Origin: a virus
Taxonomy: Duplodnaviria; Caudoviricetes
DNA: 64,000 nucleotides
Reading direction: 5' to 3' (one strand)
Virus record (IMG/VR): IMGVR_UViG_3300025251_000012
Span: 1-64,000 of that record
Part shown: positions 4,201 through 63,451 of the stretch, piece by piece
How positions within the stretch are numbered: the stretch's first letter is position 1
How the letters are laid out: each line of letters begins with the position of its first letter
Position numbers and translations under genes: made by a program
Notes under the pieces: generated by a model
The model's database searches: none
Seen by the model: the letters and a program-made list of their open reading frames with translations, nothing else
Told to the model about the DNA's origin: nothing

Positions 4201-4627
4201 AGCAGTTGCTTTTATGGTAGCAACGGCGCTCGTTCTAGGACCGCATATGGTCCTTGCTAACCCACCTTGTGAGGCTGCGTCCTCTTTACAAAAAGGCATG
4301 GAAGCTCCGTGCACGGGTCTTTTGCTGCCAGAGCCTCAAGCTCGCCAAGCGCTGCTTTGTTTAAGTGTAGACTTGCCGAAATTGCATATTGAGTTCGACA
4401 AGTTGAAATTAAAACTTTCTGTTGAAACACAGAGCTTTAAAGAGCTTGTTGCCGTTGAGCGTACTCGCGCAAATAAGCTACAGGCTCTTTTAGATGAAGC
4501 GATTACAATCCCTAAACTAGAAGTTGCGTGGTATGAAAGTCCATACTTTTGGGGCGTTGTGGGCGTTGTTGTTGGAAGCGCTTTAACGTTTGGCGCTGTA
4601 TATGCTGCTACGGAGTTAGGCAAATGA
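4178..4627 (+). CDS. Secreted coiled-coil protein with C-terminal TM helix (spanin-like partner)
   Basis: Start reassigned to ATG 4178 after GAGGA; signal peptide ending VLA-NPP, two Cys, coiled coil, C-terminal FWGVVGVVVGSALTFGAVY; no lipobox. Confidence 0.5.
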   Translation: MMRHLLIKAVAFMVATALVLGPHMVLANPPCEAASSLQKGMEAPCTGLLLPEPQARQALLCLSVDLPKLHIEFDKLKLKLSVETQSFKELVAVERTRANKLQALLDEAITIPKLEVAWYESPYFWGVVGVVVGSALTFGAVYAATELGK

Positions 4628-6324
4628 GTTGGTTACGTAAAATAATTGGCGCTCCGGCAAACACTTCTTCAGATTTAGAAAAATCGCACAAGGGTAAAAC
4701 GCCGCAACCCAAAAGCTGGCAGATTAATCCTGAAGATATCAACTACAGCGTACAGCCAGGATCCCCCGGTAGCCAGGTTCTCACAGAGACACATCCCGGT
4801 ACGATGGGCATGGACTACAGCGCGCTTATGGCGGTGTCGCGTGTTCCAGTTATCGGGGCTATTATACAAACACGTATTCAACAAGTAGCAGAGTTCTGTG
4901 TTCCGCAACCGGATAGATATTCTGTTGGCTATCGTATTAGACTGCGAGATCCAAAAAAGAAAATGACGCGTGCTGCTGAAAGAGAAGCGCACGACATATC
5001 ACGCATGATCGAAGAAGCTGGCGGCCATTTTGGTTACGGCGCTTTCGAGCCTACTATGCGGGCTTTAATGCGGGATTCGCTCGTTTATGATCAATGTAAC
5101 TTTGAAGTTATTCGAGAGCGCGGCGGCAAAGTATGGGGGTTTGTGCCTGTAGATGCCATGACAATACGTAGAGCCGTGCTTAACGACAAAGAGAAGGCAC
5201 AAGGGCGCATTGATTTTGACCACCCCCGGTATGTGCAAGTAGTAAATAACAAGGTTCAAAACGAGTACAAGCTAGATGAGATGGCTTGGGGCGTTAGGAG
5301 GCCAAGGACATGGCTAGGGGCTTCTGGCTACGGTTACCCAGAAATTGAGGAATTGGTTCGTGTCATAACAGACCTACTGAATGCCCAAACGTGGAATAGT
5401 GTAAACTTTACGAACGGTATAAATACCTCAACAATTTTAGCGCTCAAAAGTTCCATGACTGCCGATGTATTTAGAGCTTTTCAACGGCACGTAACATCTA
5501 TGATGGCTGGTGTTAGGAATAGAAGCCGTATTCCCATTGTGCAGTTGAATCCAGATCTTAACGAAGATATCCGCACAGTTGATTTGTCACAAAGCGCAAA
5601 AGACATGGAGTATATGCAGTGGATTGGGTTTTTAGTTAAGATTGTTTGCGCTGTATACCTAATGGACCCGGCCGAACTTGGCTTTGTGTTTGGTACGGAG
5701 GGGCAATCAAATAGCCTCGTAGCACAAGGCCCCACAGAGCGCATTATCGCTTCAAAAGAGCGCGGACTTAGGCCCTTACTACGCGCCGTTGAATCGTGGA
5801 TGAATCGCTATGTAATTTACGCGTACAACGACGATTTTTCGTTGGACTTCGTTGGTTTAGACACAATGACAGAGGAAAAGCGTACCCAGCTAGACCTTAC
5901 GTCTTTGCGCGGTTTTAGAACAGTCAATGAGGTGCGCACAGAGCACGATTTGCCTAAGTTAGACTCTCCTGTGGCGGACATGATTCTTGACCCCACATAT
6001 ATACAGCAAGTCACAGCCTTGTTGCAGCAAGAGCAGCAAGAAGAAATGGGCGGCATGCCTGGTGCCGAACCAGGGCAAGAAGAGGGCGGTGGCTTACCCG
6101 AAGGTATGGATGAAGCCCAAGAAGGGGATACCTATGCCGACTACCCTGGTATGGGCGAACCTATGTTTGGTAATAACATAGATGAAGTTACCCAAGCAGC
6201 AGCGGGGGCTACTGAAAAAGCCATTAAAGACGGCCGCATTTCTGTGGAAGGAACTCTTACAGGTAAGCGCAGGACAGTTTTTACTAAAGCTGGTGTACGG
6301 GCCTACATTATTGAGGTGGACTAG
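4624..6324 (+). CDS. Portal protein
   Basis: Start reassigned to ATG 4624 (ATGA overlap); DSLVYDQCNFE, GYGYPEIE, N.F.NG, SKERGLRPLL, TVNEVR motifs of SPO1/Twort-type portals; acidic C-terminal tail. Confidence 0.92.
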   Translation: MSWLRKIIGAPANTSSDLEKSHKGKTPQPKSWQINPEDINYSVQPGSPGSQVLTETHPGTMGMDYSALMAVSRVPVIGAIIQTRIQQVAEFCVPQPDRYSVGYRIRLRDPKKKMTRAAEREAHDISRMIEEAGGHFGYGAFEPTMRALMRDSLVYDQCNFEVIRERGGKVWGFVPVDAMTIRRAVLNDKEKAQGRIDFDHPRYVQVVNNKVQNEYKLDEMAWGVRRPRTWLGASGYGYPEIEELVRVITDLLNAQTWNSVNFTNGINTSTILALKSSMTADVFRAFQRHVTSMMAGVRNRSRIPIVQLNPDLNEDIRTVDLSQSAKDMEYMQWIGFLVKIVCAVYLMDPAELGFVFGTEGQSNSLVAQGPTERIIASKERGLRPLLRAVESWMNRYVIYAYNDDFSLDFVGLDTMTEEKRTQLDLTSLRGFRTVNEVRTEHDLPKLDSPVADMILDPTYIQQVTALLQQEQQEEMGGMPGAEPGQEEGGGLPEGMDEAQEGDTYADYPGMGEPMFGNNIDEVTQAAAGATEKAIKDGRISVEGTLTGKRRTVFTKAGVRAYIIEVD

Positions 6325-6584
6325 TGAAAATTGTAGTCCAAGAATCCCATTTAGGCGAGTTTGAAACCACCACGGAAGATGAGTTTGCTCGTAAACTTGA
6401 GCGCGGTATTGATGCTCTAAGGCATAGTTGCGGTTCCTCGTCTATTAGTAAAGCAACCCCGAAATTTTTTGGTGAAGTCGTGGTTATTGACAACCTGGCC
6501 CAAATTTTGGCGGGGGCATTTGAGGCCAGATTGACGGCCATGAAAAAAGATATAGTAAAAGCTGTAAAGGATGGCGGTATTTGA
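6324..6584 (+). CDS. Small head-region protein
   Basis: 86 aa ORF coupled to both neighbours; contains ISKA and IVKA motifs. Confidence 0.65.
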   Translation: MKIVVQESHLGEFETTTEDEFARKLERGIDALRHSCGSSSISKATPKFFGEVVVIDNLAQILAGAFEARLTAMKKDIVKAVKDGGI

Positions 6585-7705
6585 GCCTTTCAGACGCCAT
6601 AAACGCGGCTACACGCGCAGTTGCAGAAGCTTTAGAAGCTTTTGGGCATAAGTATTGGGATATTGTAGTTCCCAACATGCGCAACACTGTAGACCCGTAC
6701 TCTTTTGCAATGATCGTGTCTTCTATAATGTCAGAAGAAACAAACCCGGCCACTAGGGCCGCCATGCGAGATTACTCGTTTGATAAGTGGGTTGTTTTAG
6801 TAGATGACGCTGTAGATAGACGCCGTATAACACCAGAACCTGTACAACCTCCACACCCTCCGTCCATCAAAAAACCCACCCCACCTACTACTCGGTCTGG
6901 TGTAGTAGTTGGTGGTCCTACCCACACTACCGTAGGTGGACCCCCTATAGGGGGTCCACCTATACCCACGGCAGCTATAGGTAGTATTTCGCCCGGTGGA
7001 GCGGCTACGCCGCCAATACCCGCGCCGCCAACGTGGTTATTTACACGAGAACGGGAGGCTTGGATTCAAGCACGGGTTAGAGGTGCTGAATACGTGCGGG
7101 GATTAGGCAATTATTTAGACCATAGCGTCAAGAAATTAGTGACGGAATCTTGGAGTGGCGAGGACATAGTTGCCGAAGCCGACCAGGATTTGCGTTATGG
7201 CGCTAGAGAGTTGGTTCGCGTGGAAACAGCGGACGCTTTGGCACATGGCCGCAGTGCTAGGGAGTTAGCCCGTAAGCTTAGAAATGCCACGGAAGACTGG
7301 TCTAGGGACTGGGAACGCATAGCCAGGACAGAACTACAGGGGGCGTATAACGAGGGCCAGGTAATTACGGCCGTAAGAAACGATGGTGTTAAAGCCCGTA
7401 TAGCGCGCGTCCCAGAATCTGATGCTTGCATTCATTGTCAGCGCCTATTTTTAGATGCAGATGGACGTCCAAAGATATTTACTGCCGAGGCTTTGGCGAA
7501 TAACGGTACTAACGTGGGTAGAAAAGCATTTGCGTGGTTACCCACAGTATGGCCGGTGCATCCGAACTGCCGCTGTGATGTGCAGCATGTACCAGAAGGT
7601 TTAGACTTTGATAATAGGTGGCTTTTAACTACTGAGGCAGAGGCGGCCCGTTCGGTGGGCGCAGAGCCCGAAGGTTTGGACATTTTAGGCGTGGAGGTTG
7701 CGTAG
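6581..7705 (+). CDS. MuF / SPP1 gp7-like minor head protein with a Pro-rich linker
   Basis: RIARTE..GAYNEG, CxxC (ACIHC) and HPNCRC signature; directly downstream of portal. Confidence 0.88.
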   Translation: MSLSDAINAATRAVAEALEAFGHKYWDIVVPNMRNTVDPYSFAMIVSSIMSEETNPATRAAMRDYSFDKWVVLVDDAVDRRRITPEPVQPPHPPSIKKPTPPTTRSGVVVGGPTHTTVGGPPIGGPPIPTAAIGSISPGGAATPPIPAPPTWLFTREREAWIQARVRGAEYVRGLGNYLDHSVKKLVTESWSGEDIVAEADQDLRYGARELVRVETADALAHGRSARELARKLRNATEDWSRDWERIARTELQGAYNEGQVITAVRNDGVKARIARVPESDACIHCQRLFLDADGRPKIFTAEALANNGTNVGRKAFAWLPTVWPVHPNCRCDVQHVPEGLDFDNRWLLTTEAEAARSVGAEPEGLDILGVEVA

Positions 7706-7881
7706 TGGCTACTAAGAAGAAAGTTTCCGATGGGGCCAATATCGGCAAGGGTCTTACGACCCAGACAGTCATACCTATGTACTGGACTTTGACAAAAAGC
7801 CAAAAGGCCGATGTTGATAAGGCCATTGGGCGTTTTAGTAAGGCTATTAAAGAGGGCCGGGAGCCTAAGATCGATGAATAA
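7705..7881 (+). CDS. Small basic protein (58 aa, not in the ORF track)
   Basis: GTG overlaps the MuF stop (TAGTG); MATKKKVSDGANIGKGLTTQ...EPKIDE; its end overlaps the start of the helicase gene. Confidence 0.6.
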   Translation: MATKKKVSDGANIGKGLTTQTVIPMYWTLTKSQKADVDKAIGRFSKAIKEGREPKIDE

Positions 7882-10800
7882 GTCGATAGGCAGATTTAGC
7901 GCTTTAATGTCGGGGATTGCTGCGGCACCTAAGCCCGGATCTTTCACAGAGCTTGTAGAAAAAGCTGCTCGTGGCGAAATGCGCATGGGGCATAAGTATG
8001 AAATGCGCATTCCTATGGGCGTGGATGAAAACGGTAAGCCCAAATACAAATACATATACGCCAAACAACCACATTGGCGCGGCAAATTCATTCATGAAAT
8101 GCTTGAGGAAGGGTCTTCTGTAAGACTTCCAGAGCCGGATGGTGTTGTACACATTGTTGGTGAGGACGAGAAAGGTAATATTCGTCTTAAAAAAGAATCT
8201 ACAGGCGAAGAGATTACGGTAGATAAAGAAGAACTTTCAGGCCGTTTAAAGGCTATGCACGCAGAGAAAATTTCGCACACTCTTTCAATGCGCGAAAAAG
8301 AACTCAAAGCTGTTGTTAAATACGGCACATTAAAGCAGCGACAAATTGTGTTCGCAGAAGCCTCGTCGTTTGGTTTGGCCATACCACCGGGCTACCATTT
8401 GGATGGCACTGAAAAAGCAGAAGCCGAAGATGAGGCTGCTGATCCTAAAGAGTTGATGAATCATGCAATTACTTTACACGAAAAGGACGTACCAGAGGTA
8501 GATGTGACGCTTGTGCCGCCGCACGTTTCTACCTTTATAAATCCAGATGAAGAACGGGGTATTCGTGGGCTGTTTCAGCATCAACTTGAGGGCGTTGCGC
8601 GTATTATATCAAGTTGGCTTAAACGGGATGGTTTTCTTCTTCAGGATGACGCTGGATTGGGTAAGACCCTTACGTGTTTAGCCGCTATTCTCACCAACGC
8701 GGGTAGGCGGAATCTCATAGTTGTTCCTACACGAGGTAAGGACAATTTAAAGAACGAGGTGTGGAAACGCGACGGCCAGGTTTTGGGGTTGGACATAAAA
8801 GATGTCTCTGAGTCTTTTGATCCGGCCGATGAAAACAATGCCCGCCAGAATCACGACGGTAATTACATTTGCTCGTATGATGAATTATACGACAAGAAAG
8901 TCACGATAGACCCAGACACGGGTGAGGAAATTGAAACCTTTGAATTACGGCCAGAGTTTGCGAGCGGTAATTGGGACACTATTACATTTGATGAGTGCCA
9001 CAATATGGCTAACGCCGCTTCTCTTAGAACCCAAGCGGCGATGCTCGTGCAAGAGAATGCTAAGAAGGTTTTGTATTGCTCTGCCACCCCCTTCACAAAT
9101 ATATCTGACATGCACTACTTACGCCGTTTGTCGGGTAATAAACTGAAGAACGATCCCGGCTGGTTTAGTACTGGCGCAGAGTTTGTAAAGTGGGCAGTAA
9201 AAGCGGGTGCGCGTACTGCAAAGACGCTAACGCCCGTTGGTGACGTACCCCAAAAGATTGTTAATCCTAATACGCCTAAACCACTTGTGGTTGCCGCCGC
9301 ATTGATGCACGTCGGCGGCAGTAGTATTAAGCGCGTTCCGCAATTATCGAAGTCTTTAGATAGTCGGTTCCACCGTACTGAAACAGTCAGTTTAGCAGAC
9401 GATCATCAAACAGCGTTTAAAACCGCAGATAAAATCTTTGACATTGCGAAAGAAGCTGGCGTCGAAGCCCGTAGAATAGGAGCCTCTAAAGCCCTCTGGA
9501 ATCGCCAGATGTGGGAGATTAGCAAACTAGATGAAACCGTCGCCATGGCCGAAAAGTCGCTTAAAGAGAACCCAAATGGGCAAGTGGCAATATTTACGGC
9601 GCATGTAAAACACGACCACAATGTTCTTTATGGTTTAGAAGGTGCCATTAGAAAGCGTGTAGAGGACGGACACCTTTCCGCCGAAAAAGCCGAGGCGCAC
9701 ATTGCAGAGTTAAAACGTCATGCAGATAGCCTGCCTAAAGTTGACGTGCACCAAGAACTATTGAACCGCTTAGGTGGGCACGACAAAGTAGCCATGATTC
9801 ATGGCCGGTCTGATGAGCTAGGCGCTAAAACACACGACGTGGGTAAAGGGGCTACTTGGGAATCTGTTGCTAAGAAAAACAAAATGACAGTTGCCGAGCT
9901 TAGAAACTTAAATCGCGGCGTCGATATTAATAGTGCTAAAAGTCTAAAGGTTGCAAAAGCTCCCACATCAATAGAGGCCCAGAAAGCCTACCAAACCGGG
10001 CAGAAGCGTATAGTCATCGGCTCTATGGCCAAAGCAGGTACGGGGCTTTCGTTCCACGACGTGGTTGGTAATAGCCAACGCCACCAAATTAATATGAGCT
10101 TGCCCTATTCTGGCGTGGAATTTCAGCAAGTATTCGGCCGTAGCCACCGTCTTGGCTCTAAATCAAATACAACTATGACGTGGGTTAGGGGCGATTCTGA
10201 AACGGAAAACAGGGTATCTTCTATTGTCAGCACAAAGCTACAGTCTATGGGCGCGTTATCTACAGGGGATCCAGGTAAGTTAGTCTCTAAAGAACTACTA
10301 ATGAACTATGACCATAGTTCAAGTACCAACCCAAATCACTTTGCGGATTTGTTAGGCGCAAACCAAGACCCGGCACTAGAACGTGCTCGTGAACACGCCA
10401 AAGACACATGGGATTGGTCTACCGAGCGTATTAAAGCGGGTGGTGACCCACAAGCCGAGATGGGCCAACTAATTACTTCTGATTTAGATCGCGGTAAAGA
10501 GCAGCAAAGTCGCAGGGCGGTAGGCCAATTAATTCATTCAGGCTTCCATGTTCGAGTTACCGACGACAATAAGTTTGCTATTTCGGGTATGCCCCCAGGA
10601 TCAACTGGGCATAACTACTTCACAGGAGCCAAACGCAGCGCAAAGTATGACAACTCTTCAGGTGAGTGGACTGTTTCTAACCTTGATTCGTTTAGAGGCG
10701 TGGCTAGGCGCACAGGAGCCCATAAGAAAGAAGGTACGACTACTCCAGAAGCGATGACCAATGAGCATCTGGACGCAATACACGGCTCAGAGAAAGCGAA

Positions 10801-11599
10801 GAAGATGCGGCAGCGCTTGGCCAATAAAACAGGTACCCGCATTGGCGATACTGTGCCTGATAAAAGCGCTGACACAAGAGTTAAGCGGACGAAGAAGAGT
10901 AGGTTCGGGGATCTTGTAGAGAAAGCTGTAGGGTCCAAAAAAGAGGCCATATCCAAAAAGATTAAACTTCTTATGGAAGAAGGGTATCCTCAAAAGCAGG
11001 CTGTAGCCATCGCATTGCAAATGGACCGCGACGGCAAGTTGGCGTCGTTCACAGAGCTTGTTGATACTTATAAAGGGCGTATTTATCCACCCGGAACTAA
11101 GCGTGTGCGTAAAACAGGTGTTTGGGTTAAACAGGTAGACAACTCGTGGACGAAAGTTAAAGACGACAGTAAGACGCCTGCACCACCAGCCCCAGCCCCA
11201 GCTAGACGGGAAAAGCCCGAAGAGATTGAAGAAGTAAAAAACAAAAAACCGCGTAAAGGCGACGAGAAAAAATTTAAACTTAATAAGCCAACCGTTTTGG
11301 GCTTATCAGATTTTGCAGACTTTAAAAAACTAGCCGCCGCGTTAGCGGGTATGCTTGCTAAAAGATTGAAGTCTAAAGAGGCTTTAGTGTGTGTTTATAA
11401 TAAACACACTAAACACAAGATTGAAGAGTTGTCACTTGGTGAGAATTATGCCCTGGTATTTGTGTCTAAAATAACTCATATGTATGACGACGCCGATAAA
11501 TACCTTGTGGTTATAAAAGACAAAGAGACTGACGCAGTTTTGGCAGATAACCAAGGTGCAGACGGTAAAATTCGTGTTTTAGCGGGGGAGGGTAAGTAA
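7874..11599 (+). CDS. Large multidomain protein: Strawberry-notch-like SF2 helicase with inserted LysM domain and C-terminal small modules
   Basis: GFLLQDDAGLGKT (motif I), FDECH (II), SAT (III), AGTGLSFHD, LPYS.VEFQQVFGRSHR (VI); LysM-like HDVGKGATWESVAKKNKMTVAELRNLN; start reassigned to ATG 7874. Confidence 0.85.
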   Translation: MNKSIGRFSALMSGIAAAPKPGSFTELVEKAARGEMRMGHKYEMRIPMGVDENGKPKYKYIYAKQPHWRGKFIHEMLEEGSSVRLPEPDGVVHIVGEDEKGNIRLKKESTGEEITVDKEELSGRLKAMHAEKISHTLSMREKELKAVVKYGTLKQRQIVFAEASSFGLAIPPGYHLDGTEKAEAEDEAADPKELMNHAITLHEKDVPEVDVTLVPPHVSTFINPDEERGIRGLFQHQLEGVARIISSWLKRDGFLLQDDAGLGKTLTCLAAILTNAGRRNLIVVPTRGKDNLKNEVWKRDGQVLGLDIKDVSESFDPADENNARQNHDGNYICSYDELYDKKVTIDPDTGEEIETFELRPEFASGNWDTITFDECHNMANAASLRTQAAMLVQENAKKVLYCSATPFTNISDMHYLRRLSGNKLKNDPGWFSTGAEFVKWAVKAGARTAKTLTPVGDVPQKIVNPNTPKPLVVAAALMHVGGSSIKRVPQLSKSLDSRFHRTETVSLADDHQTAFKTADKIFDIAKEAGVEARRIGASKALWNRQMWEISKLDETVAMAEKSLKENPNGQVAIFTAHVKHDHNVLYGLEGAIRKRVEDGHLSAEKAEAHIAELKRHADSLPKVDVHQELLNRLGGHDKVAMIHGRSDELGAKTHDVGKGATWESVAKKNKMTVAELRNLNRGVDINSAKSLKVAKAPTSIEAQKAYQTGQKRIVIGSMAKAGTGLSFHDVVGNSQRHQINMSLPYSGVEFQQVFGRSHRLGSKSNTTMTWVRGDSETENRVSSIVSTKLQSMGALSTGDPGKLVSKELLMNYDHSSSTNPNHFADLLGANQDPALERAREHAKDTWDWSTERIKAGGDPQAEMGQLITSDLDRGKEQQSRRAVGQLIHSGFHVRVTDDNKFAISGMPPGSTGHNYFTGAKRSAKYDNSSGEWTVSNLDSFRGVARRTGAHKKEGTTTPEAMTNEHLDAIHGSEKAKKMRQRLANKTGTRIGDTVPDKSADTRVKRTKKSRFGDLVEKAVGSKKEAISKKIKLLMEEGYPQKQAVAIALQMDRDGKLASFTELVDTYKGRIYPPGTKRVRKTGVWVKQVDNSWTKVKDDSKTPAPPAPAPARREKPEEIEEVKNKKPRKGDEKKFKLNKPTVLGLSDFADFKKLAAALAGMLAKRLKSKEALVCVYNKHTKHKIEELSLGENYALVFVSKITHMYDDADKYLVVIKDKETDAVLADNQGADGKIRVLAGEGK

Positions 11600-11860: not shown

Positions 11861-11904
11861 GGCGGTGGCGCAAGAACCTCTTGCAGCACCGCCTTTTTTT
11901 ATTT
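11861..11904 (+). terminator. Intrinsic terminator / possible attenuator before the prohead protease gene
   Basis: GGCGGTG-gc-GCAAGA-acc-TCTTGC-ag-CACCGCC followed by TTTTTTTATTT. Confidence 0.8.
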
Positions 11905-11916
11905 GGGGAGAGTCCG

Positions 11917-12681
11917 TTGACTAGCTCAGAACAAAACTCAGCATTTAGGCTCTGGTCGCCTTTTAATATTGTTGAGAAGGGCGATTCAGATACAACCCGT
12001 CGTGGTCGTATTGAAGGCATCGCTTCATCTGAAGCTATGGACGCGGATAAAGAGATCGTAGTCCAAAAAGGTTTAGACTGGACTTGGTTTCTTACCAAGG
12101 GCTTTGTTTCTTTAGAGCACCCACTTGGTGTTAATAATATCGTTGGTGAGCCGGTTGAGGTATCACCAATTACCCTCGATGGTGTTGAAGCCACTAAGCT
12201 AACTTGCGATTTGTTGCTTGATGATCCGGCAGCCAAGTCTATTTATGACAAGGCGCGGACCCTTAAGAAAGCAGATTCAAATCGTAGGCTTGGGTTTTCT
12301 ATCGAGGGCCGGGTTCTTGATCGAGATGGGGATACTATTAATAAGGCCGAAGTAGTCTCTGTGGCTATTAGCGCCGTACCTAAAAATCCCCTCACTTGGT
12401 TTGAACCTATTATGGCTTCTATGTTTTGGCGTAGCCTCGTAGGTTATCCTCAACATGGTATCCCGCATTCTGGCGAGTTTGCACCTTTGGCTACACAAAG
12501 TATGCAGGGCGTTCCGTCAATTGCTTCCTATGGGGCGGGCGAGAAGCAGTTTTCTTTGGTTGATTCTTTGACCAAAGAAGATCTTCTTACTGCCCGTCTT
12601 TTAAAGAAGTTGCCACAGATGAGTTGGTCTCAAGGGTTGGCGGCTATTGAAGAAATTCTTTCAAATAAGGAGAAAGGCTAA
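11917..12681 (+). CDS. Prohead maturation protease (HK97/S78-like fold)
   Basis: GIASSEAMDADKEIV..KGLD, VSLEH (His), GFSIEG (Ser), VAISAVPKNP; start reassigned to TTG 11917 after GGGGAG because the upstream TTG lies inside the terminator. Confidence 0.9.
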   Translation: MTSSEQNSAFRLWSPFNIVEKGDSDTTRRGRIEGIASSEAMDADKEIVVQKGLDWTWFLTKGFVSLEHPLGVNNIVGEPVEVSPITLDGVEATKLTCDLLLDDPAAKSIYDKARTLKKADSNRRLGFSIEGRVLDRDGDTINKAEVVSVAISAVPKNPLTWFEPIMASMFWRSLVGYPQHGIPHSGEFAPLATQSMQGVPSIASYGAGEKQFSLVDSLTKEDLLTARLLKKLPQMSWSQGLAAIEEILSNKEKG

Positions 12682-13493: not shown

Positions 13494-15038
13494 ATGAATC
13501 TCGATACGCTTACCAGTATGGCTGGACAGAGCATTGACGTTGCCCAACTTTCGGACCTCAACAAAGCTCTGCGTGCCTCTGGAAATACTCTTGCGAAAGC
13601 AAATGTCGGCACGGTACAACAAGGCCAAGCCTTTTCGTCCGTTGCTACGAGTGAACTTGCTCCGCTTGTTCCTCAATCTATTCAAAATACTCTAGACTCT
13701 GCGACATATACGGAGCAGGCGGTTAAGTTCTGGGCGGGTCTTGCTAAGACGGCTGTTTCCAGCACGCTGCATGAGTCCGTTGTCGTCAGTAACTACGGTT
13801 CCATGAATTTGGATCCGTGGATTCCTGAAGGTGGCGCAGGGGCAGAATCTAATGGTGACTATGCTCGCCAAGTGGTGCAGATTAAATTCTTGGCCGAACG
13901 TAGGGAAATTAGCGATGTGGCCACGATGGTCGGCATCGTTGGTTATCAAGGGGTTAGTCGTCAAGGTCTCGCACAGCAGACCATTGATGGAACCCGCGCC
14001 CTTATGGGTAAACTTGAGCGCTCTTTGTTCATGGCAGACTCTGATCTGACAAGCCTCGCGTTTGACGGTTTGTACAAACAAGTTTCAGGCCATGCGTTTC
14101 AGCAAACTACAACCGATGTTGCTGGTTCGGCTAATGCGCGCACGCAGTTGTCGGTTCCTGATCCGTCTAATAATAAAAACTATACGGATATGGCTGGAGC
14201 CGCTCTTACGGCCCAACGGCTTATCGAAGAAGTGTACACTATTTCTTCTGCACCGAACTTCGGTATGGTCAATACGATTCTGGTTGATCCCCGAGTGTAT
14301 TCGTCCTTGGTTGTTCAAGCAACGACTTCGTTTGCGTTGTTTGATCCTTCCCAGGCTGCTCGCGGACAACTGATCTTCGGTACCGAGGGACTTCACATCG
14401 CCGGTCCTGGTGGGATGATTCCCATCACATCTTGCCCGTTGATGATGCCGCCCCAGACGCTTCCGGGGGCAAGTGTTGGTGCTACTTCGGGCTCAGCGTT
14501 GCGCCCGGATGTTCCAGATCTTTTGGCAGCGAGTACTAATCGCGCAAAAGCTGGTGTTGAAAAGGGTTTCACTGCTAGTACGGCAGGAGCCTTCACTTAT
14601 AAAGTGGTCGGGGTTAACGCGAACGGCTTTGCTGTAAGCAGCGCTTCGGATCAAATTACTGTAGCTAGTGGCGACGTTGCTCAAATTGCAATTGACCCAG
14701 AGGCAACAACCGAGGCGGCTTATTACCGTTTGTATCGCACGCCGGATACAAAAACTGAAGATGCGGACATGCAGTATGTTTGGTCATACCCAAAATCAGC
14801 GGGCGGCGAAACTACCATCATTGATGATAATCGTCATGAGCCCGGAACGGCCCCAGTATTTTTCCTCCAGCAAACGCCGGATGTTATGTATTGGGCGCAG
14901 TTGCTTGATTTCTTGCGGCGGCCTTTGGCACAAGTCCAAACTTCTATCCCGTTTCTCTTGATGCTTTTTGGAGCACTTCATGTTAAAGTACCGACCAAAT
15001 GTTCAGTACTTGACAATGCTTCGCTAACAGCGGCGTAA
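13494..15038 (+). CDS. Major capsid protein (HK97 fold, SPO1/Twort type, with a beta-sandwich insertion)
   Basis: AGGAG RBS; LVPQSIQNTL..AT, EGG.G.ES...Y.R....IKFL, LERSLF.ADS....LAFDG, C-terminal Y.AQL....R.PLA.....IPFLLMLFGAL.V. Confidence 0.92.
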   Translation: MNLDTLTSMAGQSIDVAQLSDLNKALRASGNTLAKANVGTVQQGQAFSSVATSELAPLVPQSIQNTLDSATYTEQAVKFWAGLAKTAVSSTLHESVVVSNYGSMNLDPWIPEGGAGAESNGDYARQVVQIKFLAERREISDVATMVGIVGYQGVSRQGLAQQTIDGTRALMGKLERSLFMADSDLTSLAFDGLYKQVSGHAFQQTTTDVAGSANARTQLSVPDPSNNKNYTDMAGAALTAQRLIEEVYTISSAPNFGMVNTILVDPRVYSSLVVQATTSFALFDPSQAARGQLIFGTEGLHIAGPGGMIPITSCPLMMPPQTLPGASVGATSGSALRPDVPDLLAASTNRAKAGVEKGFTASTAGAFTYKVVGVNANGFAVSSASDQITVASGDVAQIAIDPEATTEAAYYRLYRTPDTKTEDADMQYVWSYPKSAGGETTIIDDNRHEPGTAPVFFLQQTPDVMYWAQLLDFLRRPLAQVQTSIPFLLMLFGALHVKVPTKCSVLDNASLTAA

Positions 15039-27466: not shown

Positions 27467-29353
27467 ATGAAATCCGGCTTTAATTTTAACCAGTTTGGCA
27501 GTAAAAAGCTTAGTGCGGCAGACCAGGAGAGGCTTGATGATAAACGCGCCAGACTCCCCTTACACCCACCAATTGATAATTGGTACGCTAAAGCAACAGG
27601 TAGAGGGCGTCCAGGAGGTGGTAGGTCTACCCTTTATTATTTAACAACCCGCCCGGTTTATTGGAGGCTTAAGAAGGGCGTACCAATGCTTCTACCCGGA
27701 TGGAAAAAGGGGTCAGGCCCTTATAGGCCTGACCCACAGATTCTGCCTTTTGTAAGTTCAGTAAGTTATACAAAACGCCCGCAAATAACACCTGTGATGA
27801 CGTTTGGTACCGTTCCAGCACGACAAGTTCGTTACAGAATGCTTTATGACATTAGCATATCGGGAATGGCTCCTACGATGGACCACCCAGGAATTAATAT
27901 CATGCCGAGTGGTGGCGGTAAGGCTAAAAAGGTATCTGGTCCGCAGACGGGCGTAGAGATTCTTGATTCTCTGATTGAGTTTGTTGACAACTATACAAGG
28001 GCTCTAGGCCGAATGGGTAAGGGTACAAAACGTTACTACAGATCAACTAACACAGAATTAATGATTTTCCACGCGCCCTATGAAAATCTGAATCTTTTTG
28101 TAGAGCCATTAAGTTTAAACTATTCGAGGAGTAAAAGCGGCTCTCATTTTGGGTATACCTATGACATTAATTTTATGGCTTGGGGCGAAGGTCTTTGGGC
28201 TTCGCCCGAGTACGCGCTTGATATTGAGCAGCAAGAGCTATCTTTTTTGGAGACCATGCAACAGGCCATAGCTCAAGGCGCTGATATTGCGAACCGGGCC
28301 GAGAGCATGGTTGTCGGAAATCTTATGCAGGCGCAGCACATTTATATGAACGCGGTAGTTGGTTCAACACAAGCGCTTTCAACCGCTGTGACTGATCTTA
28401 CCAGCGGCGTTGTTGGCGCTGTGACTGGGATAATAGGAAGTTTAGACGTTGCGTGTAAGAACTTTAAAACAGCATTTGGCAATCTTGTGCCACAAGTGGC
28501 CTACGCCTACGGAATCCCCACTTGGTGGAACAATCCAATTCTAGACAAAGCAGAACGATCCTATAGAGAAGGTACAGAGGGTTATCGAGCAGTTCAAACG
28601 TCACAACAGTTGGTGTACCAAAAAGCCAGCCAAAGCCCCACCCTTACAAAAAATTATAAGGATTTTGTGGATAAAATTCCGTACCCGTTTTGGACCACAC
28701 AGGCGTTGGATTTTAATTTCGGCTCTATGCCCGGTTATGTGCCGCCACCAGATGCTGAAACTGAGCCCACAGAAGTTTACGTGGCTAAAGATGGAGACAC
28801 ATTTCAGTCTATAGCATTAGAGCAGTTAGGGTCTGTGGATATGTGGCCAGTTTTAATGCTACTTAATGGCGGCACCGAGGCCGATTTCTTAGCAGGACAT
28901 AAGCCTCTGCACATGGGTGCAAAAGTTATTGTGCCTACTTCAAACTTTAGTGCCGCACTAGGATCTTCGCCCACAGACGACCCATATTTAACGGATTATT
29001 TGCTGGCTGACGACGGAGATTTAGTCGCTGTTAATGACGAGTTTAACGACGTAAAGATTGTAACTGGTCCGTTGTGCCTTAAACAGGGTCTTCAGCATAG
29101 ACTTTCTATGCGCACAGGCGACTCCTTAGTATTTCCAGATAATGGGCTGGCGTTTGGTGCGGGAGACAACATCTCTATGGAGACTAGTGTGTTTATTTCT
29201 GAAGATGTGAAGAATCAAATTCTTAGCGATCCAAGGATTATAGAGTATAAACTATTAGAACTCATAGACGTAGGGCACGCAATCGAAGTAAACTCCCAGG
29301 CGACGGCGATTTCTGGGGCTTCTATTTCTTTAACGGTGCCAGTAAATTCATAG
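27467..29353 (+). CDS. Tail tube initiator-like + LysM + gp25-like wedge fusion
   Basis: YVAKDGDTFQSIALEQLGSVDMWPVLMLLN (LysM); DGDL....D..IVTG..CLKQGL.HRL..R.GD...FPDNG and ILSDPRI (gp25-like). Confidence 0.7.
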   Translation: MKSGFNFNQFGSKKLSAADQERLDDKRARLPLHPPIDNWYAKATGRGRPGGGRSTLYYLTTRPVYWRLKKGVPMLLPGWKKGSGPYRPDPQILPFVSSVSYTKRPQITPVMTFGTVPARQVRYRMLYDISISGMAPTMDHPGINIMPSGGGKAKKVSGPQTGVEILDSLIEFVDNYTRALGRMGKGTKRYYRSTNTELMIFHAPYENLNLFVEPLSLNYSRSKSGSHFGYTYDINFMAWGEGLWASPEYALDIEQQELSFLETMQQAIAQGADIANRAESMVVGNLMQAQHIYMNAVVGSTQALSTAVTDLTSGVVGAVTGIIGSLDVACKNFKTAFGNLVPQVAYAYGIPTWWNNPILDKAERSYREGTEGYRAVQTSQQLVYQKASQSPTLTKNYKDFVDKIPYPFWTTQALDFNFGSMPGYVPPPDAETEPTEVYVAKDGDTFQSIALEQLGSVDMWPVLMLLNGGTEADFLAGHKPLHMGAKVIVPTSNFSAALGSSPTDDPYLTDYLLADDGDLVAVNDEFNDVKIVTGPLCLKQGLQHRLSMRTGDSLVFPDNGLAFGAGDNISMETSVFISEDVKNQILSDPRIIEYKLLELIDVGHAIEVNSQATAISGASISLTVPVNS

Positions 29354-56449: not shown

Positions 56450-58525
56450 GTGGCACTCGGAGATACTTTGCGAGCCAGGTTAGTCACAACAACCTTAGTT
56501 TTAGTACTGGCAAGCAGTTGTAGCAAGAGCAGCGGCGATGGGTTTTCGCCCAATGAACTGGACGCGGTGGATACCCTTAGCTTTGTAGACGCCGATACTT
56601 ACGACCCCCATACCGGGGATACCTACGAATACGAAAAGCGTTGTTACCAAGACCAATATTGGTACTGCCCGCCCCTATCTGCTGTGTGGCGCAAAGTGGT
56701 TACAGTAGATATATGCGACGAAAACGGCGACCCGTGCACAGCCTCCGAGTGTCAGTGGTCTATCGTAACTATGGGTGACTGCGAAGAAATCTTTGAATGC
56801 GACCCTACGGGGCCGACCAATCTCGGTGAAATTGTGTGCGAGGTTGATGGGCTTTTAGGAGTTCAAACTAAATACTGTGACAAAGGCTTCTTTTCATACA
56901 GCCCATGTGACCCTTGTACAGATGAGATTTGTGACAGCATAGACAACGATTGCGATGGGACAACAGATGAGGGTTTGTACCCATGCTCCACTGATTGCGG
57001 CGATGGTGAGGGTGCCTGCATAAATGGCAAGGTAACGCTGTGTTCCGCGCCCGAGCCCACGGAAGAGGTCTGCAACTACGTTGATGACGACTGCGACGGT
57101 CTTACTGATGAGGGTCAAACAAACATTTGTAATCTATGCGGCGATGTTCCGAGCGAAGATTGCGATAGTTTTGACAATGACTGCGATGGGCTGATTGATG
57201 AGGATTTGCTAGATGGCTGTAGTACGGCCTGTGGCGATGGCTATAAAACGTGTGTTTCCGGTATGTGGACCCTGTGCTCCGCGCAAGAGCCTCAAGACGA
57301 GGTGTGTAATGGGTTGGATGACGACTGCAATGGTTATATAGACGACGGGATTAGCTGCGGCTGCCCCCCGGAAGATGTTGGGGCAATATTCCCCTGCCTT
57401 GAGCCGCCGCTCGTATGCGGCCAAGGCTACAAACAATGCGCATGTGTGGACGTGGGTTGTGCAGAGACCGCGATGACGGAGTGCCACGCCCCCTGCCATT
57501 TCTTCCCGATACCCGGCCAGACGTGTGATGACACTCTTGGAGTTCCATACCCAGAGGTCTGCAATAACCACGACGACGATTGCGACACCTTGATAGACGA
57601 AGATCTTGTCAAGGGATGTTACACCGGGCCTCCAGCAACAGAGGGCGTTGGCGAGTGCATCCCCGGCGAGATGACGTGTCTCGCGGGCAAGTGGGGCGGT
57701 AAAGTTAAAACTTCTAATACCCCAGAGACATTTGTGGAAGGCCTCTGCGTTGGTGAAGTAACGCCCATGTCCGAAGATCTCTGCGGCGGGGCAGACAATG
57801 ATTGCAATGGTCAGGTTGAAAAAGAGCTAGAGGATACAGACATCCTTTTCATCATTGACGCTTCAGGGTCCATGTACGAAGAAATTGGGGCAGTGGCGCA
57901 AGCAATGACCACATTTGCGGCAAGCTACTCCGGCTCCACCGCAATTCATTGGGGGCTGGTTACCGGACCTACGGCAGTTGGTTCTGGGTTGTCTGAGAAG
58001 CTATATCTCAACCAAAATCTTACTGAGTTCTCTACCTTTGTACCCGCGCTTTCCGCAATGGCTACGTCGTATCTTGGCGGGGCCAATGAGATGTTATATG
58101 ACGCCCTCTATTTAGCAGCGCACAACCTTGTAGATCCTCAAACGCTACCGCACCAAATATCAGATCTTGCGTGGGGGCCGGGAGCCAACCCGTCAGTTCC
58201 TAGCATCCAAGGTTTCAAGATTAATTGGCGGGAAAACGCTCACCACGTGATTATCGTGTTCTCGGACGAAATGGGTCAGAGCTATCTCAAGCCTATGTTG
58301 TCCCAGCAGAACCTAGTAGACGTTCTAAGCCATGCGGACGACCTATCTGTTTATACTTTTAGTACCGGGTTCACAAAAGACGTAACCGACTGGCTGGGCA
58401 ACAAAGTCGGCTGGGAATCGGTTTCTGTTGGCGGCTCTTGGAACGAACTGAGCACAGACCCAACAAAAATGTTTGGTGCATTGATGGACATTTTGGATGA
58501 AACCGCCTGCGGAGGTGCCCCATGA
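56450..58525 (+). CDS. Lipoprotein with MopE-like Cys/Asp metal-binding repeats and a C-terminal vWA domain
   Basis: Lipobox LASSC; six ExC...D.DC[DN]G..D[ED]-like repeats; MIDAS motif DILFIIDASGSM; VIIVFSDE. Confidence 0.85.
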   Translation: MALGDTLRARLVTTTLVLVLASSCSKSSGDGFSPNELDAVDTLSFVDADTYDPHTGDTYEYEKRCYQDQYWYCPPLSAVWRKVVTVDICDENGDPCTASECQWSIVTMGDCEEIFECDPTGPTNLGEIVCEVDGLLGVQTKYCDKGFFSYSPCDPCTDEICDSIDNDCDGTTDEGLYPCSTDCGDGEGACINGKVTLCSAPEPTEEVCNYVDDDCDGLTDEGQTNICNLCGDVPSEDCDSFDNDCDGLIDEDLLDGCSTACGDGYKTCVSGMWTLCSAQEPQDEVCNGLDDDCNGYIDDGISCGCPPEDVGAIFPCLEPPLVCGQGYKQCACVDVGCAETAMTECHAPCHFFPIPGQTCDDTLGVPYPEVCNNHDDDCDTLIDEDLVKGCYTGPPATEGVGECIPGEMTCLAGKWGGKVKTSNTPETFVEGLCVGEVTPMSEDLCGGADNDCNGQVEKELEDTDILFIIDASGSMYEEIGAVAQAMTTFAASYSGSTAIHWGLVTGPTAVGSGLSEKLYLNQNLTEFSTFVPALSAMATSYLGGANEMLYDALYLAAHNLVDPQTLPHQISDLAWGPGANPSVPSIQGFKINWRENAHHVIIVFSDEMGQSYLKPMLSQQNLVDVLSHADDLSVYTFSTGFTKDVTDWLGNKVGWESVSVGGSWNELSTDPTKMFGALMDILDETACGGAP
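56916..57826 (+). repeat. Six protein-level MopE-like repeats
   Basis: EICDSIDNDCDGTTDE, EVCNYVDDDCDGLTDE, EDCDSFDNDCDGLIDE, EVCNGLDDDCNGYIDD, EVCNNHDDDCDTLIDE, DLCGGADNDCNGQVEK. Confidence 0.88.
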
Positions 58526-60119: not shown

Positions 60120-60722
60120 TTATCTTTTTCTGTGAATGGAGTCCGAGCCCTCGGTTTCCATTTCATTTAAAGGCAGCCTGTTAAAGATCTGGTTGTCATA
60201 CATTTCAAGCAGGCGTTTCATGCTTCTTACTCTTCTAGCGTAACCCTTTGACCTTTTATTACACACGCGCCCAGCATTGTAATGACACTGGTAACTGTCG
60301 CCGTAGGCATTTTTAAACTTTTTTACTGCCTTTAGACCCGCAGCTATGACATCGCAGCCACGTGCACGCCGTTTGGGGCAGAAGTACCTAGGCAAAATTT
60401 GTAGTGGCCCTATGGCCCCAGCAGATGACACAGCAGTCATAGAGAATTTGCTTTCGTAATAACCAATGGCGACGACCTCTGGGATAGAGAGTCCGTAGTC
60501 TTCGGCCTTACTAGCCAAGGTGACGCACGTCTTCATGCGCGGCGGAAGGTTTTTAGCTAGTTTATTTCTGTAACTTTTAGACCCCACGTTATGAAATAGC
60601 GTAGACAGGGCAAGAGCACAGTGTACCTCTGCTCTTAAAGAGGGCGTGTCCTGGTTTTTTGCGAACGCAAGATCTGTGATTCCAATATGGAAGATGACGG
60701 CCAGCGCTATAATCAAGTTCAT
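60120..60722 (-). CDS. Secreted lytic transglycosylase (SLT / lysozyme-like)
   Basis: Signal peptide; YYESKF...AVSSAGAIGPLQI and HYNAG......YARRV motifs. Confidence 0.82.
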   Translation of the reverse strand: MNLIIALAVIFHIGITDLAFAKNQDTPSLRAEVHCALALSTLFHNVGSKSYRNKLAKNLPPRMKTCVTLASKAEDYGLSIPEVVAIGYYESKFSMTAVSSAGAIGPLQILPRYFCPKRRARGCDVIAAGLKAVKKFKNAYGDSYQCHYNAGRVCNKRSKGYARRVRSMKRLLEMYDNQIFNRLPLNEMETEGSDSIHRKR

Positions 60723-60744: not shown

Positions 60745-62379
60745 TTAGAACGGCGTAGTTATGTTTAAAACAGCCGGTATCGCATTAGCAAGCTCATCGT
60801 TATGCGTAACAACAAATACCAATCTGTCTGTGCTTATCTCAGACAGAACATCGACGATAGCAGCCACGCCGTCCGAATCTAGTGCGTCAAACACCTCATC
60901 AAACATCATGGCTCCCGAGTAGCCGGAAGCGGCTTCAGCTATAGCCCCCAACCCCAACATTAGCGCTACGTCCACCCGCCTACGTTGGCCGCTGGATAGC
61001 GCTTTATACCCATTACCGCCCCCGCCACCGTGGATGTGGAGGCTTATTGTGTCCACGACCTTCCCGCTGGCTTGCACAGTTTCGCCGCTTAATTCTATGC
61101 TAAGGTCCGTACATAAGCGCGATAGCCACGAATTAGCCGATGCTTGGAGCCCGTTTAGTGCGTTTGTAACCACTTGGGCACGGACACCTCTTGTGTTCAG
61201 AACTGTGGCAACGTGGCCTAAGACATCAACCTTGTCCTGTAGTTCAGACTTTTCATCGCCAAGCGACACCGCCTCTTCTTCGTGGGCGGCTTTAGAAGCA
61301 AGAAGCTGCTTCTTACTACTCTCAGCTTCTTTGGCAAAGGTTGTACTCTGGATTACAGAACGCATTTTGGTGTCTAGGTGATAAGACGCCTCGGATAGCA
61401 AATCGCAATCTCCGGTCAGTTCTTCTAGGTTGACAGTTAACGCAGATAGGGAAGCCCTCTTAGTTTTATGCTCTGCGGTTAGGGCCGCTGTAGTTTCATC
61501 TATCACAGCGCGAACGTTGTCCCGGTATTCTGCGCGTATGTCTTGGAAGCATGTAGGACACTTAGCATCTTTAATATTTTCAACCTTCTCTGCTTCAAAG
61601 CTAAGTTTTGATTCAATAGTTATTACGTCTTTACGACAGCTTCTTACTTCAGCGCTAACTTCAGAAACCTCACTTTGTGCCTGTTTATATTGTTCCTCAA
61701 GTTTAGACAGTTTGTCTTCAAGGACTTTTAAGTCGTCTGTAGGCCCTAGATTCTTCTCATATTTTTCGTAATCAGAAATTCGATCTTTAAGGCTTTTAAT
61801 GCGCTCTTGTAAAATTTCACTGCCCTGCTCTAATTTCACAAGATTCCCTTTACCGGTATTCAAATCAGTCCGACACAGCATGTGAGCACTGTCGAAACGA
61901 TCTACGCCTAACACCTCTTCGAGCAACCTTTTTCGTTCTTTGTCCGAAGCCATAGAAAAGTACACGGCATCAGAAGATGAAAAGACCCTGCTACGAACCC
62001 AAAGGCCGAAGTCCCCAACGATTGACTCTAAAGCCTCTTGCGCAGCGCTCATGGTGGGAAACTCTGCGGGATCTTCAAAGGTGCCGTCATGGTTGTATTT
62101 CCAACCCATTTGGGTGCGCCCATTTTCCCGCCGCCTAATAATGTAAACTTCATCAGTTGTGAGTCCCACCTCACAAGCGACTTCATCGTCCCCACCTGGG
62201 ATAGTTCCGCGAAGTGTTTTGCCCCAAACAGCCCAGCAAATAGCTTCAATAATCGTGCTTTTACCGGTGCCGTTAGCCCCAGTTATGACCACGGCACCCT
62301 TCTTAGGGAATGTTAGTGTGAAGCCATTCAACCCGTGAAAGCCCGTGACCTCTATGTGCAGAATATTCATGCTAGGCAT
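60745..62379 (-). CDS. SbcC/Rad50/T4 gp46-like ATPase
   Basis: Walker A GANGTGKS, coiled coil with CPTC zinc hook, LSSGQ signature, MMFDEVFDALD, VVTH. Confidence 0.93.
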   Translation of the reverse strand: MPSMNILHIEVTGFHGLNGFTLTFPKKGAVVITGANGTGKSTIIEAICWAVWGKTLRGTIPGGDDEVACEVGLTTDEVYIIRRRENGRTQMGWKYNHDGTFEDPAEFPTMSAAQEALESIVGDFGLWVRSRVFSSSDAVYFSMASDKERKRLLEEVLGVDRFDSAHMLCRTDLNTGKGNLVKLEQGSEILQERIKSLKDRISDYEKYEKNLGPTDDLKVLEDKLSKLEEQYKQAQSEVSEVSAEVRSCRKDVITIESKLSFEAEKVENIKDAKCPTCFQDIRAEYRDNVRAVIDETTAALTAEHKTKRASLSALTVNLEELTGDCDLLSEASYHLDTKMRSVIQSTTFAKEAESSKKQLLASKAAHEEEAVSLGDEKSELQDKVDVLGHVATVLNTRGVRAQVVTNALNGLQASANSWLSRLCTDLSIELSGETVQASGKVVDTISLHIHGGGGGNGYKALSSGQRRRVDVALMLGLGAIAEAASGYSGAMMFDEVFDALDSDGVAAIVDVLSEISTDRLVFVVTHNDELANAIPAVLNITTPF

Positions 62380-63451
62380 CTCCCCGTTTCAAATAAGCAA
62401 GGGTTGTATCTAAAACCGCTTCCTTTGTGGCATCGGGTATATCCATACCAGCAATGTAAGTAGACGCCAGTTCTTCTATAGAATTAGTGCCACTTTTAAC
62501 CGCTTCTACAGCATTCTTAGCCGATTCGCGGCAAGCAGAGACCGAAACATCGTGGATGATATCTAGAATACGAGCGTCTTTTTCTAGCTCCTGGATATAA
62601 TCCGCTGGCAAAAGTTCAGACTTTATTTTGAAGCGTGCAAAGTTTTTTGCATTGAGCTTTCTCAGGACATCTTCCGCTTCGGTGGGCGTGTCTATATTAA
62701 AGTAGCGTGGGCCAGGTACTTGCACGCTTTTAATATCGCCCGCATTGTACGTAGTAACATGCCCATAATTATGTCCCAGGTTGTCCCATCCCGTAGGGAC
62801 TAGGGCTCCGACTTGTACAATCGGTTGCTTATTAGGCCCAGCCCATTGCTTACGATCATGCCAATCCCCCACAAACACGCCGCCAAGCTTATATTTATCG
62901 CACCAGCTACGCACCGTATGGATAGAAACAGACGACTCTGTATTAACAAGCCACTCCGGGGTGTTGGTGTCACTAATACCAAAATGGGCAGCTAGGATAG
63001 TTCCTTCTGGAAAGTCTGCATCTTCTAGAACACCGCGCACGTTGTCTGCCATATTGCCCGGAATGAACGGCACAGCTAGTACAGAAGTACCGTTAAAACT
63101 TTCATGTGTTAGTAGGGTAGGGCTTGTTACGCAGTGAACGTGTGGAAGCCAGTCGAGAACAGAGATAGCAGAATCCCCTTCATGCGAAGATGCAATGTCG
63201 TGATTTCCTGCAAGAACAAACGTGGGCGTTTTGGGGTAAAGCGCATCGCCAGTTGCCTTCAGTATCGCTGGGTGCGGGTTATGCCTATCAAATAAATCGC
63301 CCAGAATAATTAGGGAGCCGTCAGCCGCTACGCCACTAGCAGTGCCAAAAGAAGTTATAACTTCTCGACACCTAGTGTTGATGTGCCCCACTAGCTCCCC
63401 GCCACACTTCTTATGGTTTCCTACGTGTACGTCGGCTATAAAACTAATCAT
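62372..63451 (-). CDS. SbcD/Mre11/T4 gp47-like nuclease
   Basis: IADVH, LGDLFD, LAGNHD, AAHFG, VGDWH; coupled to the SbcC-like gene. Confidence 0.9.
   Translation of the reverse strand: MISFIADVHVGNHKKCGGELVGHINTRCREVITSFGTASGVAADGSLIILGDLFDRHNPHPAILKATGDALYPKTPTFVLAGNHDIASSHEGDSAISVLDWLPHVHCVTSPTLLTHESFNGTSVLAVPFIPGNMADNVRGVLEDADFPEGTILAAHFGISDTNTPEWLVNTESSVSIHTVRSWCDKYKLGGVFVGDWHDRKQWAGPNKQPIVQVGALVPTGWDNLGHNYGHVTTYNAGDIKSVQVPGPRYFNIDTPTEAEDVLRKLNAKNFARFKIKSELLPADYIQELEKDARILDIIHDVSVSACRESAKNAVEAVKSGTNSIEELASTYIAGMDIPDATKEAVLDTTLAYLKRGDA

Follow-up and report, generated by a model that had tools for sequence, protein, structure and literature searches.

The 64,000-nucleotide window analysed here forms part of a 78,443-bp IMG/VR virus record (IMGVR_UViG_3300025251_000012, Caudoviricetes) that CheckV rates as complete, and among its virion genes it encodes a Strawberry-notch/SWI2-SNF2-like ATPase (7874..11599, + strand) whose second RecA-like lobe is split by a candidate LysM fold. 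The gene was delimited from the list of open reading frames (ORFs), its translation, and Pfam, PHROG and Foldseek matches; the protein has 1241 residues from the public gene-call start M22 (7874) and 1262 residues in the longest ORF (7811-11599), and residue numbers here follow the 1262-residue reading (P0002). The lineage-specific insert, D668-S720 (9812..9970, + strand), is about 53 residues long and consists of a short linker, the LysM fold and another short linker, and the core of the fold, K673-V714 (9827..9952, + strand), comprises strand 1 (673-677), helix 1 (683-689), helix 2 (694-700) and strand 2 (711-715). The peptide that an earlier, sequence-only reading of this DNA had singled out as a LysM domain inside a helicase is the exact translation of 9827-9952, 42 residues in frame within the ORF 7811-11599, and no other ORF of at least 60 residues overlaps the insert site on either strand. 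An identical ATPase protein is found on at least 23 contigs from several samples, so the insert is not an assembly artefact.

Pfam AAA_34 matches residues 263-441 (1.2e-14, 54.4 bits against a cut-off of 27) and Helicase_C_4 matches residues 649-831 (1.4e-15, 58.2 bits against a cut-off of 30.5), and these two families correspond to the halves of a Strawberry-notch-type SWI2/SNF2 ATPase; weaker Pfam matches are to SNF2-rel_dom (1.5e-9), ResIII and DEAD, and the best PHROG match is phrog_62, a large 'DNA helicase' family with a profile of 1881 positions (1.5e-31). Lobe 1, the first RecA-like domain (8597..9133, + strand; Pfam AAA_34), carries the Walker A motif DAGLGKT and the DExH box FDECH, and lobe 2 (9755..10303, + strand; Helicase_C_4), the domain that the insert divides, keeps motif V (AGTGLSFHD) and motif VI (QQVFGRSHRLGS) intact. 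Across 25 homologues, G282, G284, K285, T286, D394 and E395 of lobe 1 are invariant or nearly so, G743, G745, H749, D750, Q773, R777 and R780 of lobe 2 are invariant, and the motifs GLGKT, FDECH, SATP, AGTGLSFHD and GRSHRLGS, all present here, occupy columns that are invariant or nearly so; judged by these residues, the ATPase looks active. An AlphaFold model of the core (residues 240-860), built on an alignment with 24 homologues, reached a mean predicted local distance difference test (pLDDT) score of 83.7 and a predicted template modelling score of 0.77, and Foldseek matched it to CSB, CHD4, Chd1, Ino80, ISWI, Rad54, RapA and ZorD (E 1e-12 to 1e-14). The core is, as modelled, a two-lobed SNF2 fold.

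Outside this core the protein is less legible. The Helicase_C_4 alignment spans only 5-163 of the 271 profile positions, which bears on the C-terminal winged-helix domain that is specific to Sno-type ATPases (Iyer et al. 2017, PMC5512222), and neither the N-terminal region nor the C-terminal 400 residues, each run as a separate piece, gave a Pfam match. Residues 1041-1073 (10931-11029), where Pfam is blank, form a C-terminal module with the motif EGYPQKQAVAIALQM that matches PHROG 2423, a family of unknown function (4e-8). The related peptides FTELVEKA, FGDLVEKA and FTELVD flank the ATPase core on both sides (7943-7966, 10904-10927 and ~11048-11065). Among phage GenBank records, a tblastn search found just one weak match, to lobe 1, in a Gordonia phage.

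Where exactly does the insert sit? The sequence-only reading placed it within the second RecA-like lobe and away from either terminus, and the family alignment and the model agree, with the insert separating the strand VAMIHG from the helix IEAQKAYQ. In the 24 homologues, which share 27-42% overall identity with the present protein and lack the insert, the corresponding site has about 3-4 residues (consensus x-T-x-K-K) linking a strand that ends in IHG to a helix, EQxxYQxG; the Pfam Helicase_C match likewise restarts at residue 722 (profile position 56), immediately after the insert. In one homologue, P0015, an unrelated insert of some 15 residues occupies this very point of lobe 2, so the loop is permissive. 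From the Helicase_C register, the secondary structure of the model and general knowledge, the loop would correspond to the 'LDGsT...R' or 'hG-x-[ST]...R/Q' ('hGdlsQxxR') segment of other superfamily 2 (SF2) enzymes, a segment that faces nucleic acid in those proteins. A profile search of the PDB with the family alignment aligned lobe 1 alone.

The identity of the insert rests on several lines of comparison. The Pfam LysM profile (PF01476, CBM50), with a gathering cut-off of 20.9 bits, scores the 42-residue piece at 22.9 bits and falls under the cut-off for an 82-residue piece (20.8) and for the whole protein (15.9); the profile match is therefore borderline, at the gathering cut-off. In a six-frame search of the whole 78-kb genome with the same profile, the insert was the sole real match (E 3.5e-5, 20.8 bits). 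A phmmer search of 1.84 billion representatives with the 82-residue piece returned 156 matches at E<=1e-3, every one aligned to the insert alone, and the nine matches that we checked were all multi-LysM proteins, with 2-12 repeats at 1e-30 to 1e-159 and in some cases an NlpC/P60 domain; the source names of the matches include 'LysM peptidoglycan-binding', LytF and MltD. The strongest phmmer E-values, down to 1e-19, are sums over repeats, single repeats reaching 26 bits. Individual repeats nevertheless share long runs with the insert, for example SIAKKNKMTVAQLKKLN versus SVAKKNKMTVAELRNLN. A sequence search of the PDB with the insert listed LysM proteins exclusively, none of them significant alone. 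The residues of the LysM core are kept (H675, V677, G680, T682, V686, A687, L697, L700 and the buried N701), and the spacing from G to N is 21, as in 325 of 331 repeats.

Structure prediction points the same way. AlphaFold gives the insert a beta-alpha-alpha-beta fold, which in LysM domains spans 43-50 residues and has a two-stranded antiparallel sheet, both within the ATPase and alone: in context, where alignment depth at the insert is zero, pLDDT over the insert is about 66-83, and a lone 58-residue piece takes the same fold with a core pLDDT of 82-86. The lone piece was folded as a single sequence because a MAFFT alignment with short LysM proteins split the insert across two repeats. Foldseek against the PDB returned almost exclusively LysM domains (CERK6, chitinase LysMs, 4uz2, MltD, Ecp6) at a probability near 1, the closest with a root-mean-square deviation (rmsd) of 1.5-2 A over 42-47 columns and weak E-values of 0.025-1; VIA-align, which is independent of Foldseek and was run over 48,161 chains, placed a chitinase LysM first (Z 6.4, rmsd 1.7 A, 46 residues aligned), and 27 of its first 28 rows were LysM or LysM-like. 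Weak E-values and modest Z scores are usual for a query of some 45 residues. With a LysM profile match, albeit one at the cut-off, and the predicted beta-alpha-alpha-beta fold both in hand, we consider it very probable that the insert is a LysM fold nested in lobe 2.

This architecture is narrowly distributed. The check on orthologues gave a divided answer: missing from the 24 homologues, the insert is present in one close relative, the IMG/VR contig L010, whose protein is 84% identical over 292 residues and whose insert has the same length and the same unusual residues. No carrier beyond L009 and L010 turned up in JGI metagenome contigs (degenerate DNA pattern for GATWESVAKK and family scan), in a scan of 185,579 prokaryote genomes, among 5.8 billion proteins word-searched with the insert region, or among ESM Atlas look-alikes. 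The sequence-only reading knew of no helicase built this way, and apart from L010 our searches produced none; a literature search combining LysM with helicase, or Strawberry notch with virion, found no description of the architecture in a literature whose coverage is incomplete. The simplest history suggested by this distribution is a single gain in the ancestor of the two lineages. Between them, the ratio of nonsynonymous to synonymous change per site (pN/pS) is 0.16 for the insert versus 0.15 for the flanking ATPase, with synonymous sites saturated, which indicates that the insert is under purifying selection like the ATPase core.

Is the insert still equipped to bind sugar? Compared with 391 LysM repeats drawn from its own phmmer matches, the insert departs from the pattern at several places in the glycan groove. 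The acidic residue of the G[DE]T motif, D or E in 98% of the 391 repeats and Ala in none of them, is replaced by Ala681; the Leu that follows the Thr is Trp (W683); the GQ before strand 2, with G in 88% and Q in 71% of repeats, is A709 and K710; and the alpha2-beta2 segment, from the Asn to the strand-2 Leu, is 10 residues long, shorter than the 12-14 seen in 97% of repeats. This groove signature is a trait of the closest repeats and not a formal criterion of the LysM family. As far as these comparisons go, the glycan-groove signature is degenerate while the structural core of the LysM is kept. In the LysM of Enterococcus faecalis AtlA, the substitutions L14A and I39A lower affinity 80-fold, T13A 60-fold, D37A and L38A about 12-fold and D12A 6-fold (PMC4083421). 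The groove segments of AtlA correspond to the segments in which the insert deviates, W683 occupying the position of Leu-14 and T682 that of T13, and in AtlA the alpha2-beta2 loop and the Leu-14 position contribute most to affinity. Single LysM modules bind weakly, binding adds up with the number of modules, and the apparent dissociation constant for peptidoglycan is millimolar or above (PMC4083421). With groove features lost and single modules binding weakly, one worn module is, on this evidence, a poor wall anchor.

The worn groove is nonetheless held constant between the two lineages. None of the 10 inter-lineage substitutions falls in the 23 groove-equivalent positions (679-689 and 696-707; P ~0.0015), segments that were picked after the fact and that include core residues. 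The pattern indicates that the canonical LysM face is in use for something.

The surroundings of the gene suggest where the protein acts. Along the window, the large terminase gene (118-1677) is followed by the portal gene (4549..6324, + strand; PHROG 12, 8e-41; Pfam Phage_portal, 2.7e-16) and, directly upstream of the ATPase, a MuF-like minor head protein gene (6581..7705, + strand), which matches PHROG families for head morphogenesis or minor head proteins and Pfam Phage_Mu_F at 1.1e-4, below the cut-off. Downstream of the ATPase lie the prohead maturation protease gene (11881..12681, + strand; PHROG 1028, 2e-32) and the major capsid protein gene (13494..15038, + strand; PHROG 752, 4.5e-48), with a probable scaffold gene of 263 codons between them. 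A relative from a Tara sample (L003) keeps the order portal, MuF-like protein, small ORF, ATPase, protease and capsid; in another contig (L008) a portal gene lies upstream, a gene for a protein of about 380 residues and a small ORF stand just before the ATPase, and the contig ends soon after the ATPase. The Tara relative also has, just upstream of its portal gene, a separate gene for a 1096-residue protein (L003:1438-4728) with a weak topoisomerase I match, the same domain that is fused to the ATPase in P0005. The interval from portal to MuF-like gene in the other contig (L008:3955-5510) holds GNAT acetyltransferase and SAM-lyase-like genes, by weak precomputed Pfam matches, and these may be counter-defence genes inside the head module.

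Such a neighbourhood is familiar from 'polyvalent' proteins, multidomain proteins encoded among virion genes, often linked to MuF, and predicted to be loaded into the virion and to enter the host along with the DNA (Iyer et al., PMC5512222). Strawberry-notch-like ATPases occur in polyvalent proteins, InPase and DdrB-type ParB are among the domains found there, and the packaged antirestriction protein DarB of phage P1 is cited as a precedent (PMC5512222). The present protein has, besides the ATPase and the LysM, N- and C-terminal regions of unassigned character, and homologues (P0008, P0005, P0027, P0020) add InPase, eukaryotic-type topoisomerase IB, an N-terminal ParB domain plus helix-turn-helix, or DUF6582. 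Given a gene of this family between the MuF-like and protease genes, and polyvalent-type domains in its members, the ATPase is probably virion cargo that acts on incoming DNA; both packaging and ejection we infer from gene position and analogy.

The rest of the particle also bears on how such cargo would travel. The phage has a complex baseplate, so its tail is probably contractile. A second, weak LysM-like match lies at 28778-28840 (10.8 bits, E 0.05) in the ORF 27467-29353, which encodes a 628-residue protein whose C-terminus matches a PHROG 'baseplate protein'; the match may represent the LysM-like module that baseplates of contractile tails usually have. Elsewhere in the window, a 691-residue protein (56450-58525) joins MopE-type Cys-rich metal-binding repeats (1.2e-13) to a VWA domain, a combination unusual in a phage that may hint at the host lineage; an SbcC-like (AAA_23/SMC_N) and SbcD-like (Metallophos) gene pair occupies 60745-63451 (- strand), and a gene for a 200-residue SLT transglycosylase (60120-60722) adjoins it.

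What, then, might a LysM do inside a DNA motor? We propose that a phage double-stranded DNA translocase of the SWI2/SNF2 type acquired a LysM repeat of bacterial type, which entered a surface loop of its lobe 2 in frame. The N and C ends of a LysM lie side by side, which would allow the module to plug into the loop with the host fold unbroken and all the ATPase motifs intact. The insertion would have arisen in one sub-lineage and have been kept there by purifying selection; as its glycan signature decayed, the LysM would have become an extra contact or gating surface beside the loop of lobe 2 that faces nucleic acid. Its partner may be DNA or a protein, and through the face with which LysM domains bind sugars it would tune when or where the translocase engages. 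Structural relatives make such a change of partner plausible: the matches include LysM folds in the baseplates of pyocin R2, Mu, phi812, Milano, A-1(L), PVC and P2 gpX and in a trypanosome mitoribosome factor, so the fold can serve protein or ribonucleoprotein contacts, also in phage particles. We put the probability that the insert is a repurposed contact or gating module at roughly 0.45.

Several observations weigh against this proposal. Most contacts of a LysM with glycan come from the main chain, and LysM domains can diverge widely in sequence (PMC4083421), so a worn signature is no proof that sugar binding has been lost. The conserved canonical face and the Trp in the groove would suit a sugar ligand as well. 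With a net charge of +5, the insert falls within the usual range of LysM repeats (mean +3.4, with 35% at +5 or above) and so gives no special signal of DNA binding, and the selection estimate comes from one sequence pair.

A rival account would make the insert a working module for peptidoglycan or other glycans containing N-acetylglucosamine (GlcNAc), either holding an ejected ATPase at the cell wall or allowing GlcNAc glycans or their fragments to localise or regulate it, a reading that we regard as somewhat unlikely. The insert derives from bacterial wall-binding LysM repeats, it keeps T682, whose equivalent T13 is important in AtlA, its groove-equivalent segments are invariant between the two lineages, and injected polyvalent proteins often join nucleic-acid enzymes, SWI2/SNF2 ATPases included, to wall-attacking domains such as lysozyme (PMC5512222). 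Yet the insert no longer has the acidic residue of G[DE]T, the GQ or two residues of the loop, and it is one lone module, whereas LysM modules taken singly are weak binders (PMC4083421). The place of action raises a further difficulty: peptidoglycan is found beyond the cytoplasmic membrane, in a place devoid of ATP, and a LysM nested in a motor lobe could not be cleaved off without destroying lobe 2, so wall binding and motor activity would not be able to coincide. A probable contractile tail adds to this, as the cargo of such tails is thought to go straight into the cytoplasm. The docking on the cell wall that the sequence-only reading had put forward is left unsupported, though not refuted, by the worn groove signature and the lack of ATP at the wall; its other suggestion, a LysM repurposed to bind protein or nucleic acid, has at least the same likelihood.

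It is distinctly unlikely, in our judgement, that the insert is a tolerated passenger, a LysM-coding piece that landed in a permissive loop and has no role, being at most a stable and harmless bulge. The different insert of P0015 at the same point shows how accommodating the loop is, the LysM is confined to one narrow lineage, and guanine-cytosine content along the ATPase gene has no anomaly at the insert that would point to a very recent arrival. A passenger of this kind would hardly be expected to have a pN/pS equal to that of the ATPase core at saturated synonymous sites, nor to retain its length and unusual residues in L010; moreover, substitutions avoid the groove-equivalent segments, whereas avoidance of misfolding would constrain the core and not exposed residues. 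A long shot, beyond this, is an injected SNF2-type translocase that would use the LysM in its motor lobe as an anchor at the entry site while reeling the genome in, or as an allosteric switch responsive to GlcNAc glycans or wall fragments. Hardly tenable is the notion that the insert is no LysM at all and merely a short helical hairpin resembling the consensus by chance: a Pfam score that clears the gathering cut-off in just one of three contexts, weak Foldseek E-values and a modest VIA-align Z would allow it, but the significant phmmer matches were LysM proteins in every case checked, single repeats share runs, G-to-N spacing and core residues (H/Y, V, G, T, A, L, N) with the insert, and two independent structure searches list almost only LysM domains.

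Several known systems bear comparison with the protein. The LysM repeats of wall hydrolases (AtlA, the NlpC/P60 proteins 4uz2 and 4xcm, and MltD 1e0g) share the fold, core residues and spacing and are the closest relatives in sequence; by contrast, the module here occurs once, inside a motor domain of cytoplasmic type and not in a secreted protein, lacks the acidic residue of G[DE]T, the GQ and two residues of the loop, and carries Trp at the Leu-14 position. The LysM folds that act as structural contacts, in the baseplates of P2 gpX, pyocin R2, Mu, phi812, Milano and PVC and in the trypanosome mitoribosome factor, share the fold at Z 2.5-5.7, whereas the insert is nearer in sequence to wall-binding repeats and none of those domains sits inside an ATPase. 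Phage T7 gp16 is a head-packaged, ejected protein that has a transglycosylase domain and a role in genome entry, and it offers a precedent for a packaged protein that combines a wall-directed domain with DNA entry; gp16 differs in that its wall-directed domain is separate, catalytic and N-terminal, in not being an SF2 ATPase and in coming from a podovirus. DarB of phage P1, a virion-packaged methylase-helicase that protects incoming DNA in cis, is, like the present protein as judged from the position of its gene, a large phage SF2 ATPase presumed to be carried in the head and to work on the DNA as it enters, but Pfam detects no methyltransferase domain in our ATPase, and DarB is not known to carry a LysM.

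Close kin are the Strawberry-notch-like ATPases of polyvalent proteins from phages and conjugative elements (PMC5512222), which have the same AAA_34 and Helicase_C_4 core, the same SNF2 fold and the same setting among virion genes beside MuF, and homologues of the present ATPase are fused to InPase, ParB and topoisomerase IB. The protein described here differs in having no methylase partner or MPTase, in that MuF is a separate gene, and in the LysM nested in lobe 2; LysM has 0 occurrences in the survey of polyvalent proteins (PMC5512222). Polyvalent or injected phage proteins are a known theme, into which both the ATPase family and its place in the head module fall; what sets this protein and its close relative apart in the searches made is the LysM inside the motor lobe.

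How molecular motors come by new functions can be seen in nested domains, and in this family the comparison is already at hand, with 24 homologues representing the 'before' state and two lineages the 'after' state. If the LysM still binds sugars, the protein would couple wall recognition to a DNA motor in a previously undescribed way, through a mechanical or a regulatory link; if it does not, it would be a clean, dated example of a LysM fold that has taken on a different partner. The finding also draws attention to a family of SNF2 ATPases, little studied so far, that uncultured phages encode in the head module and that are probably injected counter-defence or genome-entry factors.

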